A stretch of 64,000 nucleotides of DNA from Cenococcum geophilum (Eukaryota): the NCBI GenBank assembly GCA_050273025.1, contig CP158635.1, forward strand, positions 10,788,001 to 10,852,000, given 5' to 3'. The number at the start of each line of letters is the position of its first letter. Within the stretch, counting starts at the first letter, position 1. Of the stretch, positions 50,123-64,000 are shown one piece after another. A model generated the notes under the pieces. That model saw only the letters and a program-made list of their open reading frames with translations, made no database searches and had not been told where the DNA came from. The position numbers and the translations under genes are program-made.

Positions 50123-50882
50123 TATATTAGGGGATTTTGCTAAGACTATCTAAAGACCATTAGCTAATAGGTCTATTATCTAAGAGGGCTATTTAGCCTA
50201 TTCTCCGCAGGTCTAATAATATATGGATTGTTAATGCCTCCTAACGAAAATTTTAACCTAAGTTTATAAGTAATAAGCTGATAAATTAATCCAAAGCTTT
50301 AATTTAGAGCTTTATTATATAGACTTTATTTAAATATATATAGAGATAAGGTTTTCTAGGGGGAGACCCCCTAAGACCCCCCTATATAGAGCTTTTACTT
50401 AATTTAAAAGTAGTAATAAGATTAAGGCACCTTAGTTACCACTAGGTAAGGATCTACTATAGTAACTAAGGCGCCCTACTTAAGCTAGGCTTAAAAATTA
50501 TATTAGTTATAGATCTAGTATATATTTAGACTATAGAGCTTTAATATAGAGCCCTCTACGTATAATCTAATATAGTAGATTATAATTATAATTTAAAGCT
50601 TTATATACTAAATATTTTTAACGCCTAATAACTAAATCGCTATATAGTTAGAATTAAAGTCTACTGCCCTAACTTGATTAAATATACGTATAAGAAGAGA
50701 TATAACTATATACTAAGACCCCTCCCCTAATAGGCGAAGGCGGTGCGACTATAATAGTATAAGAGGCTAATTTAACTACGTCAGGAAAAATTTTACCAGC
50801 ATTTTCGCAGCATTTGGCGGCATTTGGCGGCCAAATGCGCAATCCGCGCACTATAACGTGTAGCGTATGGTATCAACTTAGG

Positions 50883-51215
50883 TGCGGCATACTGCCGCAT
50901 CTAACAACGCGATGTAGCATACTGCCGTATCCAATAACGCAGTGTAGCATACTGCCGCATCTAGCAACGCGGTGCAAGTATACTGCCGCATCTAATAACG
51001 CGGTGTAGCATTCTGCCGTATCTAATAACGTAGTGTAGTATTCTGCCGCATCTAACAACGTAGTGTAGCATTCTGCCATATCTAATAACGTGGTGTAGTA
51101 TTCTGCCGTATCTAATAACGTGGTATAGCATTCTGCCGCATCTAATAACGTGGTATAGTATACTGCCGCATCTAATAACGCGGTATAAGTATACTGCCGT
51201 ATCTAATAACGCGGT
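50883..51215. repeat. Tandem array, ~11 copies of a 30-31 bp unit (TGTAGCATWCTGCCGCATCTAAYAACGYGG)
   Basis: Directly visible periodic repeat without spacers. Confidence 0.95.
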
Positions 51216-51370
51216 ACAGCTAATTGCGTATTTATAGCTACCTAGGTAAATAGTGCCTTTATTCTATTAAGCTCTCTCTATACTTAATATATAATTAATA
51301 TATAATACCCCCTTTATATATTTTATATATCTTACTTACTTTAAGTAATAAATAAGTATTACTCTTTCCA

Positions 51371-51599: not shown

Positions 51600-53760
51600 A
51601 TTAACCTACTATTTTAAGTTTAATATTTATATAAGTCCCGCCGCGATAGTAGTACCGTACTATTAAACCCCTAATTATCTTTATTCTCGCTATTATTTTC
51701 CCTATCTATTTTACTACCTTCTTTACTCTTATCCTCTTTATCGCCGTTATTTTCCCTATCTATTCTACTACCTTCTTTACTCTTATCCTCTTTATTAGTA
51801 AATTCTAGTATTACTAGTTTATCTTTACTCTATAGGCGGGCCTTTATATCCTTTAGTATAGCACTATTTATAATATCTATAACCTTAGACTTACCGGTAA
51901 AAGTATACTGCAAGATATAGTAATTAATTCCTATTTTCTGTTTATTATTACCTTAAATTTATTTAAGGCGCGCTTAGATAATATTAATGTTATAGTTATA
52001 ACGTGGTTTATAAGCGAGCGGCGAATACAAGCGAGCAGCGCACCTTGAAACTCACCAAAAATTGGAAAAATCGCACTTTAATATCTCGATAACCACTTAA
52101 TAATAAATTCTAATAATTTAGATTTAGGCTTTTATATATACTCTATAGCTTCTATTAAGATTATAGAGTAAATAGTTTAATAGTTTTTAAAATATTAAAA
52201 TTTGGGGGCTAAAATAAGGCTAAATTACTATATCCTACTATATCTTAAAAACTATAAAGCTCTTTACTATATAATTTTAATAGAAGCTATAAAGTATATA
52301 TAAAAGCCCAAATCTAAATTATTAAAATTTATTATTTAGTAGTTATCGAGATATTAAAGTGCGATTTTTCCAATTTTTGGTGAGTTTTAAGGTGCGCCGC
52401 TTACTTATATTCGCCGCTCGCTTATAAACCACGTTATAGCATTAAAATTATTTTATTAGTATACTATAAAAAGGAGACCTTATATATAGTTTTAGGGTTT
52501 ATTCTTTATAACGAATATACTAGGCTACCGTTATCCTATTATATTATCTTTATTAGCCTATATATAATAATTAAAATAGTATAATATTATAATATAGGAA
52601 ACGGTAGTAAAGTACTATAGTATATAGTAAGTATCGCGATATAACGTTGCGATATAATTAATATAATATTATATATTTACACTTATAGTATACGGTTATT
52701 AAGTAAACCTATTATTATACTTAGGATTTAATTCCTTTAAATCTTTTATAGTATCCTTAAACGGATTACTAATTACCTATTAAATCTATAGTATCTTATC
52801 TCTAGTTACGTTTTATATCTTATTAACTTATTATAGAAGTAGCTTACATAGCCTTTTATTACGCTTAGGTTAGTAGCTCTTCTAGGTATTTTATAGTTGC
52901 TCCTAACTATTTATAATACGCTTTAGTAAGTATAGTAAGAGGCTTTCTATAGATTTACCTATAATTATAGCGTTAGCTTTAAACTTATAAATAACTTATA
53001 TTCTGCTTTTATAGTCCTTAAGAGTATATTAAATTGCTATATATATAAGCTATATTATATTAGCTATAATAGGCAAGAAGAGGTTAGTATTATTCTTATT
53101 AAGGGTAAGTAACCTTAGCCCAGAATTAAAGAACACGCGCTTAATATAATGTATAATAATTAGTGCCTTAAATCTTGTCTCTCTATCCTAGCCTTAGTTA
53201 GTTAGGTATAATAAAAGGTAGAGTACTAACTAGGCCACTAAGCGTAAAGCGGTTATCCTTAAGTAGTTCTACTACTTTCTTTACTATAGCCTTAGTATCT
53301 AGTTTAAGGCAGTAATAGCTCCTGGTAATAATATCGCGTACTATATTTATTATATAATACTAAAATACGCTAAGCTAGTTATATAGCTAGAAAATTAGTT
53401 AGTATAGTACTACTAAATTTAAGGACCGTAAACCTTATATGCCGCTAGCCCTAGTGGCATACTTAATACTCTATTTATTAGGTTTCCGTAACAGTCTATA
53501 ATAGTAATTACCTCTTTCTATATCTACTTTATTAGTATATTTAAACCACTTATATTTATTTCCGGCTAGGGAGAGAAATAGAGCTCTTTAGGCATAGAGC
53601 CTATTATTACTTATATAATAAGACGTGTCTAAGTAATACCGTATATCTTTGTATTAACTAGGCTAAGTAGCTGCTTTATATATTGTCTAAAGTTATTCTA
53701 TAGCGGTTATTTATTTAAGTAATATATGCGTTTCTTTTAGGTATGGGTTTTAGATATTTT
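51600..53760 (-). pseudogene. RIP-inactivated DUF6532-like gene with acidic C-terminal repeats, interrupted by a MITE
   Basis: De-RIP ~52970-53270: LLEDDRFT...RFEAPIIIHCIKRVFFDSG...LF.PI.ADNIAY...AIQHTLKDYESG....EF; D/E-rich duplicated segment at 51680-51800. Boundaries are approximate and the domain call is from remembered motif pattern. Confidence 0.5.
52001..52434. mobile_element. 434-bp Fot1/pogo-type MITE with ~175-bp TIRs
   Basis: Starts ACGTGGTTTATAAGCGAGCGG, ends CCGCTCGCTTATAAACCACGT; TA TSD on both sides. Confidence 0.9.
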
Positions 53761-54329: not shown

Positions 54330-57300
54330 GTAAATAGTATGGTGTATAGGATATAAAGGGTAGCTAGCGCATAGAGGGTAATGTGTAGTGGTGTTATGTT
54401 CTAGTTTATTATAGTCGCGGCAATTTACCCCTTTATTATAATCCGGCGCCGCTAGTTATAACTTACCGCTATTTTAGTTAAGTTATATTTATTTACCGCC
54501 TAGTATAAGCCTATTTTCTTACATATATATTAACCTGTGCCCTATTTATTTGCTTAAAGTCTTTATTATATATAGTATTATATATATCCCAATTACTATA
54601 GTTATTTATAAAGAAACAGTCTATAATATTAATATTCGTCGGTATAAGTAAGATAGGCCTTATAATATAGTTAATATTATATATCTAGAGGGCATCTAGC
54701 GTGCGTTTTATCCTACTATTAGATAGCTTTATACTCTATACTCTAAGTATTCTAGTTCTTATATTAATTTTACTACCGTTATAAACTTAAAGGGTCTCTA
54801 CTAATGCACTAGCGTATTTTAGGTATTTACCCTTACTATCTAATTACCTAGTATCATGGATTATAAATAGCAGATAAAGCCTCCCCACTTTATTGCTATA
54901 GAGGCTGTCGTTTGCCTACTTATATTCTTATACTATTATAGCATTATAGTAGGGGGCTTTAGTATTAGCCTATAACGGGGTATATTAAGCAAATACCTTA
55001 TTAAGCTTATTAGTGTTAGTGGCATTCTTCCTAAAGTAAATATAGTATATAACGCTGTAATGGATACTTAAGGGTATCTTTAATACCCAATTATTATCGG
55101 CCTCTAGTTAGTTAACGTCCTAGTTTATTTACTAGATTCCGTTAATCTACTTACGGTATTCCCTTATAAAGGGGGCTAGTTTAGATATAAGGTCGGTAAT
55201 CTTTATCTAGCGCTATACCTCCTTAACTATACGCCAGATAGATATATTAATTCTTTAGTCTTAAAGTATCTAAGTTATATAGTCGTTAAAGTTCCATATA
55301 TATAAGCGATATACGTATATAATAACTATAGGACCTAGTTATATTATCTATATTGCGCTTATTAGGTCTACTATATTAATTATATTAGTTAATGTCTATA
55401 GCTTAAGTTCGTTTTAAAGTATAGTGTTAAGATATATAGTGTTATATTATAGCATCTGCTCTTTATAGTTGTTCTATTTATTAGTCCTACGGTAGAATAC
55501 CTTCTATAGCTTATATACTTACTCCAAATACTTTATATCTATACCTTTAATTACTCCTAGTTGCTAAATACTCTCTAGATAGTAGGTAATAGCATATAGC
55601 TTAGAAATATTAAAGTGTAGTAGTTTTACCTTACTTAGTTAAAACAGAAGGAATATATCCTTTATCTTATCCATTCTATAAATAGCTACTACTAGGTACT
55701 GGATGGTTAATTCATTGTGTAATATATATTAAAATAGTATAGTAAAGTCCACAAACGCCCGGATAAATAGCATAGCGCCTTTATTTTATTTTAGTAAGGG
55801 TACTATAATGGGGACCAATTATTGTAACAGAGATTTATATATCTTTTCTATTTATTAGCCGATATTTACCTAGCTATCCCATACTATTATATTAGTAAAT
55901 CGTTTCACCTATATAAAGCGAGTGGTAATAAGTGTATTAATATTTAATATCTCCTAGCCGCAACTATCTATACGCGGGATATTAAGGCCCTAATATTTTC
56001 TAGCCTATATTTCGCTTTATATAAGCCCCTTAATCTAGTGCATAAGATATTTACTAGTAAGGCCTTTAAGCACCTAGTGTAGGAAATTAGGCGCCATTAT
56101 CTTATAGATATTAGATAGATTATAGCCCTATATAAAGTTATAGAACGGCTAAATATAATCTAAGTTATTCTTTTTATTAGTATCGCAACCTTCCTACTAT
56201 ATTTATATTTGGTTTTTTGTTAATTAGTATATACGGAATAGCTACGGTTACTAGATAGCAGTTATTAAATTATACCGTTTATTTGTATATATATAATAAG
56301 TTAAATATTTATAGCTACTTTTAATACCTATAAGCGTGACCTGTTCTTTATAATTAGCTATAAATATAGCTAGAAGTAAAAAGTAGTGTTAATTCTAGCC
56401 ATCTGTGTATAGGAGATATACTCCTTCTTTACTAGCTTTTTCTAACGCTATAGGCATTATTAGCATAACTATACTAGCAGTAGAGTTATCGCTAAAGTAT
56501 ACGTTTAAGGATAGCTATAAGGGTCTTATATTATACCGCTAGTTATATTATTTAGTTACTAGGTATATAGACCAGGAGGTATATAAGTAGTAATAGGGCT
56601 AGTTAATTTACGGATTGTTAAATATATAGTTTAATATTTCCAATTAAAATATAGAGCGACTATACTTTCTTACCGCCGGCGTATTATATTAGTTAGGTCT
56701 TATTACTAGCTAATATAATTAGCACTACGGTTACGCTAAGCGGTAGCTACTTTTACATCTCCTACTACCAGTCTACCGTGTTAAGCTTATTATATATTCT
56801 TATTTCTACTAATAAGTACTACCTTATTAGTGAGAAAGTTATATCTCTTTAGAAGGGCTATAACTAATAAGAAAGGATATAATCTTTAGAGCATTTTAGT
56901 AACGTACTAGCAGCTACTAGTCCCCTACGGTTATAATTATTTTAATTTACTATGGTTAATTACTCTTAGATTATATCTATTTTAAAAGTAGTTTTACTTT
57001 AATATTATTAGCACTCTAGTAAGAAAAATGGTTGGTAAATACTCCCTAAAGCCTAATATTATTAAACTATTTATTAATAGCGCGGTTAGAAGTCCCGTAG
57101 CTTACCTACTATAAACCCTATATATATTCTGCCTTACTGCTAAATAAATAAAATAGGGGAGGTATCTTATTTAGTGTACTGCTAGTACGCTTAATACGCG
57201 GCATAATATTGTATACTGCCGTAGTATTGTCCATAGTTTATGGATTTCCTTAGTTCCGTCTTAGAGGCTTTCCTATAGCGCGGCTAGTAGCCTCTTTAAA

Positions 57301-57800
57301 TATTTTAGTCTAAAAGACGTCTATAAATATTCTAGTTAAAGTTTACTAATTAGTCTTAACTATCGCTAGGTTATATACCCTATTAAATGTTACGGAATTA
57401 TTATTATAGTGTATATCTATAGCCCCGTTATTCGGCTTATTAATAATATTATTACCTAGAGCTTATATAGGTGGCCACTTATTACCTTGCTCTAATTTAG
57501 CCTTATAATTAGTTATATAATGCCCTTTTAAGGTTTAATAGTATAATAGTGCATTATCGTCTATATATTATATAAGTGGCCACTTATTATATTACTTTAG
57601 CTTAGCCCTATAATAGGCTGTCTAATACTTCTCTAAGCTTTAATAGCGTAAGGGTATATTATTATTTATTTCTTTAATATTAACGCCCTTATATCTACCC
57701 TTCTTTTATTTCTATTATTTTAGATAATATTATTTATAATAGGTTAGACCGCCCATGCTTTTTACTTTAGTCCTATACTTTCTCTATTACCGCTAAATAG
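54330..57800 (-). pseudogene. RIP-inactivated Plavaka-family transposase
   Basis: De-RIP motifs in the expected order: T.DWWWEMQKQLP.GATVVPIILASDKTQLT..AGGK.AW.LYI.IGNI (~56630-56780), MAPDFLHQVLKG (~56060-56098), QWTGK (~55850), RAFVDF...QY..H (~55715-55762), HFNIPKLHAI.HYPESI (~55565-55617). Ends are approximate. Confidence 0.8.
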
Positions 57801-58389
57801 AGCTTATTTATAAATTGCCGCATTAAGCTATAATTTGCTATAGTTTAGTTAGAAAGAAGCTGAAAATAATATCTATATAGAACCGTATATTTAAAGTAGT
57901 ATTTATAGCTTATACTATGTTATAAGCTAGTTAAGATAGGAGGAGTATAATAAGAGTACGGCAATATCCGTGGATACTAACGCGCTAGATAGTGTAACCC
58001 GTTACGTTTTACGCTAATTTACGCTAGATCGCGTTACGTTAGGCTAGGAGACTCTACTTATTACTAATGTCGCGGTGCCTTTTTATTATACTAAGCATAG
58101 GATTTTAAATACCACTATTTCCTACTTAGGATACTAGACTGTTTTTTATAATAGGACGCGATATATAATAGCGGTATACTGTAAATACGGCGTAGTATAA
58201 CTCTATAAGCGCTATAGACCCGTAAAAAGATATACAGCTTATTACTGGCTTAGGCATTACTGTAGAGAGACTTAATACTATTAAGCGGACTTTTAAGTAG
58301 GTTATTATTAAGGACGGCATCTTATATGTTTTATTTCGCGGATAACTAAATAATTTACTACGTAAGTAGGCGATTTAAAAAGTTATCTA

Positions 58390-59445
58390 TTAGGTAATAG
58401 AATGTGAGAAGGTACTAGCGCTATAAGTATATAAGGCTATATAGAACATACTAGCCCGCGTATAGTTAAATATATATAAGAAGATAAAGGTGCTAAAACG
58501 GCCTGGCATTAACTATATAATAGATGCGGAAAGGGGGTATACGGCTACTATAAACTTATAGAGTTTATTTTAGCTTAACTATATATAGAACTACAGCTAT
58601 AATCTTAAACGACTTGTTATACTACTTTATAGGCGGAAACTAGATAGTATAAACTTAGTCCTAAGTATAGACGTGGCCTTAAGTCTAGTGTTGCTGTTTA
58701 ATGCGCCTTAAGACCTACGCATAGTTAAATATTAGCTACTAGTTAAGATGTTTTTAGAGGCCGGGGTAGATTATAATAAGGAGTGGATATAGGCCGCCTA
58801 TATAGAGATTATGCCTATCCGAAATAATGGGGCCTTAAGGGCTGCTCTATTAAGGGCAGTTTATTATAGGGTAGACTAGGTTATATTTACGACTATCTAT
58901 AAAGATAGTATATAGATATCCGTTATAATTATAATATATTACTAATATTTATCTAGCCCTATTTTTAGCGCGATACGTTTTACTAGGCGGGCTAGAAGGT
59001 ATTAATTAATTATAGTTAATCTAATCTACGTAAAGATAGTGACTTTAGTTAAGTTTGCCTTATAGCGAGACCTCCTATTACACTAGGAAGCCCTAAGATT
59101 ATTACCTATATATATAATCTTAGGTTATCTAGATATAGTACGGCGAATTGCCTTTACTATAGGCTCTTTTATTAGGGACAACTATATAGACATTATATTT
59201 ATCCTATGTTTTACTAGCTAGTAGCTAGTATAATAGGATAGGTATTATTTTAAGGGCCTATGGTATTAGCGACAAGTTTCTTAAAATATAGTAACGGCGT
59301 ACTAATACTAGGAATAGTATACCTAATATAAGCAGGAGAGGGTATTAGGTCACGTTGCCTTAGCGGCAGCTATAGTAAGAAAAGGATTAGATCCTATTTA
59401 AGGTTATTATAGTTTAGCGAAAATAGAGGCGGCCTATACTATATG
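58390..59445 (-). pseudogene. RIP-degenerate ORF-like region of unknown function (Pro/Gln/Ser-rich after reversion)
   Basis: Codon-like structure with mostly TAA/TAG stops on the minus strand; no recognisable domain. Confidence 0.25.
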
Positions 59446-60124
59446 GAGAGTAATTAATAATAGTTGCGATTGCTAGTAAGATATCTAGACTATAATCTAA
59501 CTAATTAAGTACTTAGGGAATGTTTAGTTATAAGTTTAGATTAGAATAAGGGCTTTAAAATAGAGTTAATTTAAAGCTCTAATCTAATTCTAAGGCGACC
59601 GTTCGGTTAAATTCTAGTTTAACTTAACTTTAGCCATAAATTTTTAATGTTTTAAAAAACACGCTAAAAGTTACTAAAAAGTTGGTAACTTTACTATATA
59701 TAGAATCTAAACTAAGGTCTTAGTATTAATTTAAATTAGGAGCTTAAAGCTCCTTATTTAAACTCTAAATTAAATCTAAAGGCTTTAGATTATATACGTC
59801 TATATAACCTATAGATCTATAAACGCGTATTAAATTAGGAAGGAACGCGTTCTTTCTACTAGACTTTTAGTTTAGATTTAAAAGCGATAGATTATAACTA
59901 AATAACCCCTTAAAATCTGGATTATGGATTAGTATTAATTAACCGCTAGCCTATAAGGGATAGAAACTAGGATTACTAAGCTTTATAAATTAGGCTATCT
60001 TTACCGTAATATACTTATCTATTTTAGAGATTATAATTATTAAAAGTTTATCTTATTTAGCTGTAATATATAATATTATAATATACCGTATTTTACCTAG
60101 TACTATAGTAAAATTATAAATGCT

Positions 60125-63100
60125 AAAGGCCTATAGCTACCGCCGCTCTTAACTTCTATCTAGTGTCCCTATTTAAGGGTCTCGCTACTAATAAAGTCTA
60201 TAATATCCGTTTTTACTACCCTTCTTATATTCCGACGCCACTAATATCCTCTCTATTATTATTATTCTTGCTATTATTACTAGCACTATCCTAGCCGTTA
60301 TTATTAGCGCCCTTTCTATCGGCCTTATTTTACGCTTTAGTATAATTACTAGTACTACTAATATTTACTTTACCCGCGAAGTTAGGGATAGTAATATTAA
60401 AGTTAACGTCTATACTATATAAAATGGGCGTATAATCGGCTGTATATTGGCGGTAGATACGCTATATAGTTTTATTAACGTTAAATAGGGTAATAAGTTG
60501 CTAGAAGTACTCTTTTTACTTAGGATTCTTAAGGTTAATAAATACCTTATTATTCTTATACTACTTCTTAATTTTATAGTACGCGGTATTTATAAAGGTT
60601 TTGTTGCTAGTATAATAATTATAGACTACCTAAGGACTACCGATAATAATAAGGCCTGCTTATAGTCTAGTAATTATAAAAAGGTTCCTCGCTATATCCT
60701 AGATAAATTTTAGTAGACTAGCAACTATTATATTATATACTAATAACTCTACCTAGCCGCCTTGGATGCTATTAACGGTAAAGACCTTAATCTCGCTAAC
60801 TACTAACGCAAATTTTTGCCACTTACTGCTATCTTGCTGGGCGTAGCACTATTCTTTAAGCGTATGCAGTGCTGCGGAGTAGATGGTAAGTTAGGCTGTA
60901 TATAGAACGGTAAGGCTAACCTTTAATGGCTTAAATTTAAAGTTTATTAGCGCTATGGCCACCTAGAATACGCGTTAAGTGTAGACTAGGTTATACGTTA
61001 ATTAGCTAAGCTTATTTACCTATATAGTACTATTAACGGCAAGGAAGGTAATAGGGTAGTCACAGCGCAACATATCCTTAAAAAAGCTCGCCGCTAGCTT
61101 TAACTGCTCTTGGTCCTTAACTATTAGGCTTATCTAAAGCTAGCCGTGTAGTAGGACGGCATTTATGAGATATATAATGTCTTTAATAAATTAATATTAT
61201 AGTAAGAACTATACTATATCTATACTAGCCGTAAGGAGATGCGTATAGAGGGAGATGGATTTTTAATAGTGGAACGGATTATCGAAATTAGGACTAAGGA
61301 TTAGTTTTAGTTAGTATATATTATTAAGGAGAACCTAAGGTATAGGGTCGCTAGCCTAGATTTATAAACCTCCTTAGATTAAATATAGTCTACTTTAGGT
61401 AAACCTAGTAAGACTGCCCAGCTTAGATACCTTCTTGGCCTTATTATAGAAAACTACGCGTATAGCGCTAATAGAATATATATAAGTCTATAAGACTATA
61501 TTAGGTGTTATAAGAATAATATTAGCCTTCTTAGCTAGGTCTATAATAACTACGTTAGCCGCGAGTATTAATCCTATCTTATTATTTTGCGTTATATTGT
61601 CACTAAGCGTAAATTAGTATAAGTATTAGCGGAATTTAGCGTATTTAGTTGTATTAGGGTCTGTAATAGGATATAGGTTTCTATTACTATTTAGGATACC
61701 TATAAGGCGTAATAATTACTAACCTTTAGATAAATCTATAACCTATAACCGCTTATTAAAGCTAATAGCATTACTAGCCTTAAACGTACGGTAGAGTAAG
61801 AATGCTATATTTAGCATAGACGCGTCCTTGTTAATTATAGTATAGTTATTCTATTCCTTAAAATACTTAGGATAAGTATTAATACCTACCGCTGTTTGCT
61901 GTATAACGGCATCCTACTTATAGACCTTAGTTTCCGTTAAGCGTATATAGTGGCGAAGGATAATAGGAAATTTAGCGGGACGGCCTTACGTAATTAGTAC
62001 CTTATAGTCCTCTATAAGCGTATTATTAATTATCTTAGCTAGCATATTTAGTTAGTAATTAAGCGGCAATAGGACCTAGATTCTAGTAGGATCCTACTAA
62101 GGCGACCTAAGTTAATACTAGTATCGTACTAAGATAGTTAGGAAGGTTAATTTCCTAACACTACTAGGGCCTTATATTAGCAAAATACCGCCTATTATAT
62201 ATTTAAGCGTAGTACAGGCATCTATTTGCTCTTTATTAAGTAGCAGTAAAACGGCCTTAAGGGCATTATTAACTAAGTTCTTCCTATACTTAGCGATATT
62301 ATAGTTAAAGTAATTAATATACGGGAGATCTATAAAGTTATTAGATAGCGTAATTTAGCGCTTAATATAGAAACTGTCGCCTCCTTACTATAGGTGGTAT
62401 AGAGTATTAATCTTTTAGGAGATTCTAACCTTAGGGACACGCTTAGTTACGAGATATTTAATACCCTATACTATAATTAGGGCCTTACTTAGGTTACCAA
62501 CTATTATAAAGTTGTTACTGCTTAGGATATACTCTAGAGCAAATATAGGGTTTAGTATAAACTTATAACCCACCTATAGTTAAAAAATAAAAGTATAGTA
62601 GTTATAGCCGGAGCTAAAGGGAGTAGTATTAATAATAACTTCTTCCTAGCTGGCCTAGCTATCTGCGTCTTTACCTAGGAATAAGATATTAATAATAGAG
62701 TTAGTATAAAGGGCAAGACTATTAACTATTTAGATAGTAGCGTAGTAGACTTAGTTTGCGCTACCTAAGAAGGTAATAAGATAAATAATAGTAGGTACCT
62801 AGGGGTTCTGATTAACGGCTTTAAGGCTCGCGACTATGGTATAGAACTGGACTATAAAATACTTAAGAACGCTATTGAACTAATACCTTACGGGGATTTT
62901 ATATAATGGTCGGTCCTCCACTAAGAGCTATATACTAAGTTGGATATTTATATTATAGTTCTTCTACTAGCGACCTAAAGGATTATTAACGCTCTGCTGT
63001 TATAGGCTCGCGTTTAGGCTCGCGATATAACTATTAAGCTATTTAGTGCCTAGTGTAAAGAAGTAGACAACGACTATAGGATTATTTAACAGCATATTTT

Positions 63101-64000
63101 AAGCTTTATAGATTTGTGGTATAAACGGGCCGAAGTCCCTGTTAATAAAGAAGTACTTACTAAGTAACGTGCGCGTACCTAGTGTAAGTTTATTAGAGGC
63201 GATAATGAACCTAATATAGTAAAGTTATAGGGTTATAGTATCTTGTGGGAGAATATAAGTAAGATACTTAAGCGTAGTTAGACGTAATAGTTGTTAAGTA
63301 ACTAGAGAAGCAGTATTAGTAGTATTAACCTTAATATTACCGGCGATATTGGTATTTGTAAATCGGATAGACGCCGTCTTATATAAATAATAAGTAGGTA
63401 TTCTACCGGTCTTGTAAGACGCCTAGAATATAATACTATATGCTATAATATACTCTTTAATAATTTGCATAACAAACTAAACTATAAAGTAGTTATTATT
63501 TAGAAGCTAAAGTATATTTAAAGGTTCGGCTATTACGGAATTGCTGTCCTTTATATAGGTGTCTAGATTATCTACTAGGCTATCTACTACTAGATAGAAG
63601 CTGGCTGTATTAAGAGGTTTAGGTAATAGAGAGGTAGTAGTACCTAGTGCATCTACCTTACCTAAAGCGGTTACGGCGTCTATTACCTAAATTAAAGTAG
63701 GTCTACTTATGCAATTATTAATATTATACCCTATAACTCCGTAGTTCTTATATACCTAACTATAAAAGATAGTTTAATGGTCTAGGGAGCTATAGTTTAG
63801 GCAAGTTTACTTTTTCTTACCTAATAGCTAGGGACAGTCTCACTTTCTATAGCCTATAGCACTATATTAGTTACACGTTATACTAGGATAATTACTCTTA
63901 AGATAACTAGCTTCCCTATAATTATTATATATAGGGTTAAGGCAGTTAGCTTTAAAATAACTAGCCTTACTATAGCCGCGATAAAGTTAAAAAGCTTTCT
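60125..64000 (-). pseudogene. RIP-inactivated Upf1/Sen1-like (DNA2/NAM7, AAA_11+AAA_12) SF1 helicase with at least 4 N-terminal CCHC zinc knuckles; 5' end beyond the window
   Basis: Single minus frame of ~1290 codons. De-RIP: four CX2CX4HX4C (~63765-63985); L..EQ.DA then LLIQGP.GVGKST (~62145-62235); VVF.DEA (~61436-61458); VLLGD.HQLKP and NPF..Q.SISLY (~61250-61335); QYR (~61195); TVDSIQGG (~60757-60780); D.ARN....TR...GLIIIG (~60640-60700); acidic tail. Confidence 0.8.

Follow-up and report, generated by a model that had tools for sequence, protein, structure and literature searches.

What protein was encoded by a stop-ridden, minus-strand reading frame at the end of the window (the whole 64,000-nucleotide stretch of DNA analyzed here), and what could a mobile element gain from carrying its gene? 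The initial annotation, made from the sequence alone, had read the frame as a hidden, intronless SF1B helicase with four tandem CCHC knuckles, carried by a repeat, that might aid transposition or interfere with host silencing.

A RIP-inactivated Upf1-like helicase gene

The gene spans 4.05 kb in a single frame, and most of it lies inside the window; it starts at extended position 64265 (G000 C1:10852265), 265 bases past the window end, and alignment to an intact relative, P0002 (1355 aa), suggests that its stop codon is at 60215-60213. From position 63998 downwards, the minus frame contains 78 stops among 1261 codons, nearly all of them TAA or TAG, and residues 1-1347 of P0002 align with the window copy in one frame, with 59% identity. 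The DNA bears a strong signature of RIP (TpA/ApT of 1.7-1.9), and 498 of the 540 residue differences from P0002 are reachable by C>T/G>A changes alone, compared with 110 on average, and 134 at most, in 200 shuffled pairings, which rules out chance or artefact. Because of the RIP damage, the family remained hidden until the intact relative was used: the window protein, with X at the stops, matched nothing in Pfam or PDB, a profile of 18 helicase copies likewise yielded no PDB match, and AAA_12 was matched by 4 of 18 copies. Every Upf1-like SF1 motif is present in P0002, as aligned with host Upf1, Dna2, and other helicases, and, when mapped onto the window copy, the motifs follow one another in one minus frame in the order originally annotated. 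The features of the gene are listed below, with the core, motifs, and knuckles mapped from P0002:

60213..64000, minus strand: RIP-inactivated Upf1-like SF1 helicase gene with N-terminal CCHC knuckles (frame reading and alignment to P0002)
extended 64049-64008, minus strand: knuckle 1, past the window end
63711..63983, minus strand: knuckles 2-6 of six (C-x2-C-x4-H-x4-C), RIP-damaged (Pfam zf-CCHC on P0002)
63983-63942, minus strand: knuckle 2
63929-63888, minus strand: knuckle 3
63875-63834, minus strand: knuckle 4
63803-63762, minus strand: knuckle 5
63752-63711, minus strand: knuckle 6
62270..63500 (approximate limits), minus strand: family-specific N-terminal domain, then a region weakly like the Upf1 stalk/1B barrel
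60660..62240, minus strand: helicase core, containing motifs Q and I-VI
62240-62223, minus strand: motif Q
62174-62151, minus strand: motif I
62069-62046, minus strand: motif Ia
61454-61431, minus strand: motif II
61331-61305, minus strand: motif III
61208-61191, minus strand: motif IV
60779-60753, minus strand: motif V
60692-60660, minus strand: motif VI

The number of knuckles needs correction: P0002 has six rather than four, five of which fall within the window, the overlooked one being that at 63752-63711. The knuckle strings previously obtained by reverting RIP are close to the P0002 sequence, although inexact. Such CCHC arrays match two RNA-binding proteins, Air2 and the retroviral nucleocapsid. 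The family-specific domain comprises about 190 aa (P0002 residues about 260-445), and a search of residues 258-445 against the atlas returned no matches; in profile comparison, the region before RecA1 bears only a weak resemblance to the stalk/1B barrel of Upf1 (hhalign E 0.031, probability 1.6%). Relatives with 35-43% identity (P0003-P0007) contain 4-7 knuckles and have kept the Walker A motif, the DE pair, the Q of motif III, and the R of motif VI, which shows that the helicase has long been constrained. In further family branches (P0125, P0129, and P0151), knuckles are present at the C-terminal end as well, suggesting repeated gain of nucleic-acid binding.

A separate clade of fungal helicases

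The assignment as an Upf1-like helicase was upheld by the AAA_12 domain, matched by P0002 above the cut-off of 27 bits (E 8.7e-20, 71.6 bits), and by the PDB matches, with Upf1 the best, followed by Sen1, ZNFX1, and SMUBP-2, and a family profile match to Upf1 at 2e-82; AAA_11, the other domain expected, stayed under the cut-off of 27 (E 1.5e-4, 22.1 bits). Family membership points to the SF1B type with 5'-3' polarity. Orthology to the named host proteins, in contrast, did not survive phylogenetic analysis: AU tests rejected a clade with Upf1 (p-AU 1.6e-5) and one with L095 (p-AU 6.7e-7), a host protein that we read as Hrr1/SAD-3-like and whose best PDB match is ZNFX1. The family forms a separate fungal clade (support 99/97), and the members with N-terminal knuckles group in a clade of their own (98/98), apart from the single-copy host relative. 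In the Pfam search, the UPF1_Zn_bind (CH) domain was found in the host Upf1 gene (L089) and was absent from P0002.

Overall, the fungal family is large, 164 representatives having E values of at most 1e-10. No relatives were found in viral contigs (query P0004) or prokaryote genomes (query P0002), and a word-index search with P0002 returned only the self-match. One single-copy, stop-free relative without knuckles lies upstream of ordinary genes (C3:14340228-14344220), so that membership in the family does not imply a transposon role. Like Upf1/NAM7, Sen1, IGHMBP2/Hcs1, Dna2, Aquarius, ZNFX1, Hrr1/SAD-3, and MOV10, the helicase has an AAA_11/AAA_12 core with all motifs, but, unlike these, it is mobile, combines six CCHC knuckles with the unmatched 190-aa domain, and has no CH, nuclease, R3H, or NFX1 domains. 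Upf1-like helicases also include enzymes of DNA and hybrids, namely Dna2, IGHMBP2, and Sen1.

The helicase gene as cargo of a Plavaka element

The repeat is a Plavaka TIR transposon 20.4 kb in length. Its TIRs measure 26 bp and its TSD 2 bp, and, besides the helicase, it encodes a Plavaka transposase and a Snf2-like ATPase:

50777..50804, plus strand: left element end, 2-bp target duplication (50777-50778) and 26-bp TIR starting CGTCAGG
50871..51218, no strand: subterminal tandem repeats within the left end (self-comparison)
52600..53700, minus strand: decayed open frames (column reading of copies)
54496..57640, minus strand: Plavaka transposase, RIP-inactivated, its frame split over three segments, 57640-56960, 56800-56504, and 56499-54496 (Pfam PF18759; intact P0153)
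58100..58950, plus strand: decayed ORF, also in a sister Plavaka family (32% identity)
extended 66200-70300 (L021:2200-6300), plus strand: divergent Snf2-like SF2 ATPase gene (column reading, motif-level resemblance)
extended 71169 (L021:7169, C1:10859169): right TIR end, the element running 7.2 kb past the window

The transposase gene, which probably contains introns, matches PF18759 (E 8.3e-9 and 1.4e-7) and is 63% identical to the intact P0153 (E 1.9e-27 against the same profile); all 11 transposase pieces match PF18759, 10 of them over the cut-off, both window pieces included. By eye, P0153 contains CSTC, HAITH, and then a downstream E, the assignment of the catalytic acids being our own reading. 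The ORF at 58100..58950 had no Pfam match in any of three copies. For the Snf2-like gene, Helicase_C was matched under the cut-off by all seven C-terminal pieces (best E 4.9e-4); none of the seven N-terminal pieces matched Pfam, and the N-terminal half was also without a PDB match.

The 2-bp duplication was observed at three of four empty sites, the fourth being ambiguous. The targets at these sites, CG and CA as well as TA, rule out a strict TA target, although all filled copies have TA; TA flanks of RIPed elements can mask other 2-bp targets. Accidental duplication of a host gene is contradicted by the TIRs, the TSD, and the transposase linkage, and an origin of the knuckles from a retroelement Gag is excluded, as they share the frame of the helicase in the intact protein and belong to a TIR element. 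IS3EU, with termini TAYGG..CCRTA and a 6-bp TSD according to the accessible text of PMC12730594, was likewise rejected, given the Plavaka transposase and 2-bp TSD of the element.

At least 48 distinct helicase loci are spread over all 7 contigs of the genome, and a transposase of the same family lies within 12 kb of 33 of the 48 and within 45 kb of 46 (chance, 0.03 per locus). The helicase gene is almost certainly transposon cargo. Stops were present in all 36 loci scored against P0002; RIP, and not RNA silencing, ruined every copy examined, and the helicase therefore did not save the element family. Transversion polymorphisms among the copies are even across codon positions (39/37/32), so that the copies evolved without selection once inserted, which would hold for any cargo.

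Copies that escaped RIP, from other samples, do occur in RNA-seq contigs. In run X10, a 4396-nt contig begins 208 nt above the ATG and has a length that fits one mRNA, and a 5181-nt contig spans the Snf2-like side of the element. In the RNA-seq contigs, which give neither strand nor expression level, a 63-nt GT..AG intron, oriented on the helicase strand, is spliced about 740-800 nt 5' of the ATG, so that the gene is intronless in its coding region but not upstream of it. No reads matched in the raw-read run X24, of which 12% was read (no test), and runs X19-X20 gave small word shares only.

The same genome harbors a sister Plavaka family of about 21 kb, with ends CATCAGG and at least 13 transposase loci. 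In the two copies examined, the transposase and the middle ORF are accompanied by two Snf2-like genes, and an SF1 helicase was found in neither copy (best profile E 2.2, vs. 8.5e-73 for the window copy). Because this family multiplied without it, the helicase is optional cargo, and the earlier suggestion that it aids transposition is weakened.

Comparison with described elements

The closest parallel is PlavakaB of the CMCT clade, described, in the accessible text, with a PF18759 transposase containing C(2)C, H(3)H, and a final E, termini 5'-CATCA..TGATG-3', a 2- or 3-bp TSD, and TET/JBP genes proposed to be anti-silencing cargo (Kojima 2025, PMC12730594). The element shares the PF18759 transposase, short TIRs, 2-bp TSD, and possession of an accessory gene. 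It differs in its termini, CGTCA..TGACG, the commonest left end, CGTCAGG, being one base off; in its host, which is RIP-active and presumably an ascomycete, whereas the families in the accessible text of that paper are from Agaricomycotina; and in its 20.4-kb length and its cargo of an SF1 helicase and a Snf2-like ATPase instead of TET/JBP. The word "helicase" has 0 occurrences in the accessible supplement text of PMC12730594. As in AcademH, KolobokH, and Helitron transposons, reported to carry DEAD/Helicase_C or PIF1 helicases (PMC10799480, accessible text), a DNA transposon encodes a helicase beside its transposase, but here the helicase is Upf1-like, knuckle-bearing, and optional within the lineage. 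The SF1 helicases of insect LINEs, one of which is described in the accessible text as having weak silencing-suppressor activity (PMC5563155), are also transposon-borne, with intact motifs, and were proposed to blunt RNA silencing; those, however, are of viral origin and fused to the retrotransposon ORF2, in contrast to this stand-alone fungal Upf1-like gene of a DNA transposon. A search of the openly accessible literature found no Upf1-like helicase described in a Plavaka element or in any other TIR element of fungi.

Possible roles of the helicase

Our preferred but tentative reading is that the intact helicase may act as an optional RNA-unwinding accessory shielding the element from host RNA silencing. 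Precedents for such a role are the TET/JBP cargo of PlavakaB, the SF1 helicase of insect LINEs, and the part played by SAD-3 and SAD-6 in Neurospora meiotic silencing (see below). The knuckles would bind single-stranded RNA, and the motor, moving 5'-3', would strip RNA-RNA or RNA-DNA duplexes or proteins from the element transcripts; such stripping would leave fewer precursors of small RNAs. The Snf2-like ATPase, whose gene is placed divergently, may act on chromatin or DNA to the same end. It is somewhat unlikely that the element instead captured, as a passenger, a member of a fast-evolving fungal helicase family that benefits its host, perhaps through antiviral or non-self defense, or benefits nobody. 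The even transversion spread and the mobility of the sister family without the gene would fit such a passenger, as would the presence in this genome, from the wider family, of one intact single-copy member and two relics with no match to the element transposase within the 30 kb inspected. Against it, the helicase has a fixed position in an element family numbering at least 48 copies, the gene is transcribed from the internal region of the element, as judged from the RNA-seq contigs, and the N-terminal-knuckle branch stands as its own clade.

A direct contribution to transposition, whereby the helicase would unwind DNA or clear R-loops at the ends or the donor site of a very long element and increase the yield of excision or integration, appears improbable. 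The presence of a DDE transposase and another ATPase in the same element, the textbook action of Sen1, IGHMBP2, and Dna2 on hybrids or DNA, and the helicases of AcademH, KolobokH, and Helitron would all be compatible with this role, but the spread of the ~21-kb sister element without the helicase and the resemblance of the knuckles to those of RNA binders argue against it. Neurospora meiotic silencing employs the helicase-like SAD-3 and the SNF2-domain SAD-6, according to the accessible text of PMC5555490, and the two enzyme types of the element are the same. Together with Upf1 being the nearest solved structure by sequence, this would accord with a decoy that replaces, and thereby poisons, host Upf1 in mRNA decay or the SAD-3/Hrr1 complexes. 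A decoy is nevertheless very unlikely, because the Upf2-binding UPF1_Zn_bind domain is missing, the protein groups with neither host protein, and the catalytic residues, needless for a pure decoy, are conserved.

An extension of the proposed anti-silencing role, which is speculative and which we deem unlikely, is that the zinc-knuckle Upf1-like clade serves fungal mobile elements as a dedicated, interchangeable module against silencing, passed among unrelated classes of transposons in the manner of TET/JBP genes. Here, it would be paired with a Snf2-like ATPase to counter the same two steps as are used in host meiotic silencing: silencing that depends on an RNA helicase, and the detection of unpaired DNA that depends on SNF2.

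Fungal transposon proteins that counter RNA silencing are scarcely known, and the case proposed so far for Plavaka, in the accessible text of PMC12730594, is that of TET/JBP against DNA methylation. The element is a recently active, multi-gene test object, with intact helicase and transposase sequences and un-RIPed copies in RNA data, and the sister family provides a natural helicase-free comparison. The element further hints at where part of the large fungal family of Upf1-like helicases came from.

Helicase Gene at the Window Locus

The helicase gene at the window locus is real but dead: the minus frame starting at 63998 contains 78 stops in 1,261 codons, and the protein read from it, with stops as X, matched nothing in Pfam or PDB. 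Alignment of 18 X-read copies recovered P0002, a 1,355-aa relative and the single intact protein found, the closest solved structure to which is that of Upf1 (E = 7e-13). The initial annotation had expected AAA_11/AAA_12 matches for the consensus protein, and P0002 matches AAA_12 (E = 9e-20) together with zf-CCHC (E = 2e-21), AAA_11 being sub-threshold. A single-frame alignment of P0002 to the window copy runs from 64265 to 60243 (window numbering carried past 64000) and comprises 801 identical positions, 498 explicable by RIP, and 42 others. All SF1 helicase motifs claimed by the annotation map from P0002 onto the window copy in the same order; the tandem CCHC knuckle array is also present, with six knuckles (five inside the window) rather than four.

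A Plavaka Element Carrying the Helicase

The first search of the C. geophilum genome (178 Mb in 7 contigs) yielded 42 matches at 40 places, with 87 to 90% identity to the window stretch. Similarity between the copies spans 50776 to extended position 71172, and the element terminates in inverted repeats that pair over 29 bases with 93% identity. Among 23 assembled copies, 17 left and 17 right ends were located, 14 of each flanked by TA. Empty sites were sought for 11 two-ended copies and found for four, three of which display a 2-bp duplication, the fourth being ambiguous. Because the unfilled targets read CG (window copy), CA, or TA, the TA flank is in part a RIP product. The right flank of the window copy (L021:7172-7480, about 7.2 kb beyond the window) recurs 12 kb further on (L022:9346-9654; 309 bp, 94%); the window element seems to have inserted into another repeat, a sister copy of which supplies the empty site. 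Column-by-column reading of the copies produced the following layout.

53700-52600, minus strand: unclassified open frames
57640-54496, minus strand: Plavaka transposase (PF18759)
58100-58950, plus strand: unclassified ORF
64265 to 60243 (extended), minus strand: SF1 helicase, aligned to P0002
66200-70300 (extended, beyond the window), plus strand: SF2 ATPase

PF18759 was matched in all 11 transposase pieces, which identifies the transposase as Plavaka; the SF2 gene is putatively Snf2-like by motif reading. An intact transposase, P0153 (63% identical), lies on a contig of 19,995 bp, approximately one element length, so that the contig might, as a guess, represent a complete, undamaged element. 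Three merged searches set a lower bound of at least 48 distinct helicase loci in the genome; for 46 of these 48, a transposase of the same family lies no more than 45 kb away, in agreement with the earlier proposal that the helicase is carried by a repeat. Among Plavaka transposons, the element stands out as a variant with new cargo.

The window (C1:10788001-10852000) consists of AT-rich RIP blocks at 1 to 23 kb and 44 to 64 kb (TpA/ApT ~1.5 to 2.1) with a gene-like island between them; this island (23000-44000), with a repeat block on either side, is RIP-free and contains several long open frames (≤614 aa). The RIP pattern suggests a filamentous ascomycete. At 51985-52450, the window copy carries a ~435-bp palindromic insertion (arms 85% alike) that is missing from the other aligned copies and looks MITE-like.

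Thirteen transposase matches at 36 to 41% identity mark a second Plavaka family, of which two copies were examined among at least 13 loci.

C4:8666900-8688000 (L140-L142): second-family copy
C5:17862500-17884300 (L143-L145): second-family copy

The two copies share ~21 kb, with CATCAGG-type ends visible in one, and both encode the transposase and two Snf2-like genes, a middle ORF being detected in one. No SF1 helicase was found in these two copies (profile E = 2.2 vs 8.5e-73 on the window copy); its slot is filled by the second Snf2-like gene. Given this sister family devoid of the SF1 helicase, the helicase appears to be optional cargo.

Phylogeny of the Helicase

A search of 1.84 billion representatives with P0002 retrieved 642 proteins at E ≤ 0.001 and 44 at 1e-30, and look-alike clusters in the atlas are mainly ascomycete. 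The five nearest full-length relatives (35 to 43% identity) have four to seven N-terminal knuckles and retain the core catalytic residues; such N-terminal knuckles occur in 12 of the 80 family proteins of ≥700 aa. In three other family members (P0125, P0129, and P0151), four or five CCHC knuckles are C-terminal instead.

The genome encodes its own Upf1, Dna2, and Aquarius (Pfam-named), as well as genes that we take to be Sen1, Hcs1, and MOV10-, Hrr1/SAD-3-, and ZNFX1-like. In helicase-core trees (FastTree, 98 rows retained from 166 after a coverage filter; IQ-TREE, 33 rows), the P0002 clade stands apart from all these host helicases (support 99/97), with its depth uncertain due to long branches and sampling by similarity to P0002, and the N-terminal-knuckle proteins form one branch (98/98). 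Constrained trees uniting this branch with Upf1 or with the Hrr1/SAD-3-like gene, two of the kinships raised by the initial annotation, were rejected. The helicase belongs to an unnamed fungal clade.

Further relatives were found in the same genome.

C3:14340228-14344220 (L114/L115): knuckle-less relative, stop-free, 1,331 codons, one place only
C6:14489100-14489960: decayed relative
C5:412955-416468: decayed relative
C7:5873770-5876434: decayed relative

The C3 gene is flanked by a RIPed block on one side and by ordinary genes on the other. At the DNA level, the C6 and C5 relics are 77% alike; the C7 relic has, ~4 kb away, a 400-bp stretch matching window 59512-59913. Within the 30 kb fetched, no P0153 match was found near any of the four loci, which, together with the stop-free state of the C3 gene, argues against a purely mobile family.

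Apparent Transcription of Un-RIPed Copies

The un-RIPed 5′ stretch of the helicase gene is present, wholly or partially, in 20 of the 24 listed runs from 11 studies, mainly of soil, root, and fungal samples. Four runs were compared with L084, an un-RIPed metagenome copy of this 5′ end; contigs give neither strand nor level. RNA run X10 contains a 4,396-nt contig starting 208 nt above the helicase ATG, a length that fits one unspliced mRNA (208 + 4,068 coding + ~120 nt), and a 5,181-nt contig reaching towards the Snf2-like gene. In another contig, an intron of 63 nt (GT..AG, same strand as the helicase) located further upstream has been removed, which would not be seen in DNA. The coding region fits the intronless description given originally, which fails further upstream. 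Run X9, for which RNA status is a guess, provided five contigs, X18 one short contig, and the raw-read run X24 no reads on L084 in the 12% sampled. With P0002 intact and an un-RIPed copy in the X10 contigs, the window element has relatives that are intact and seem to be transcribed.

Possible Role of the Helicase

Cut-and-paste transposition with TIRs is established for the CMCT clade, and the transposase would accordingly mobilize the 20-kb unit via its TIRs, leaving the 2-bp duplication. The helicase and Snf2-like genes diverge across a 2-kb spacer in which two kinds of repeat, one inverted and one direct, are possibly shared promoter elements.

L021:627-715 and L021:1777-1858: inverted repeat pair, ~85 bp
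L021:1350-1710: direct repeat, ~200 bp

The helicase could assist the cutting reaction or act on the transcripts of the element. Because the sister family lacks the helicase and the accessory domains are of RNA type, we infer that the latter is preferable. The knuckles, which resemble the RNA binders Air2 and nucleocapsid, would load the motor onto single-stranded RNA; the motor would strip duplexes or bound proteins from the transcripts, and less small RNA might then be produced. Three papers offer precedents: TET/JBP cargo in PlavakaB (PMC12730594), an insect LINE helicase (PMC5563155), and host meiotic silencing employing a helicase and an SNF2 protein (PMC5555490). An anti-silencing function is one that we doubt slightly more than we credit.

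RIP and the Fate of the Family

Over 561 bases, 120 of the 124 differences between L084 and the window copy are C>T or G>A, hitting 69 of 82 CpA and 37 of 78 CpG sites. Since the differences are almost all of this kind, the family would have been nearly identical before RIP and probably spread recently. Metagenome copy L082 (1-1677) has eight stops yet a low TpA/ApT (0.88), suggesting a mutation context different from the CpA-type RIP of the window copy. Across 31 element copies, 7,167 of 7,976 variable columns are purely A/G or C/T, and stops interrupt all genome matches scored against P0002 (36/36) and P0153 (68/68). Whatever the role of the helicase, RIP killed the helicase-bearing Plavaka family in this genome.
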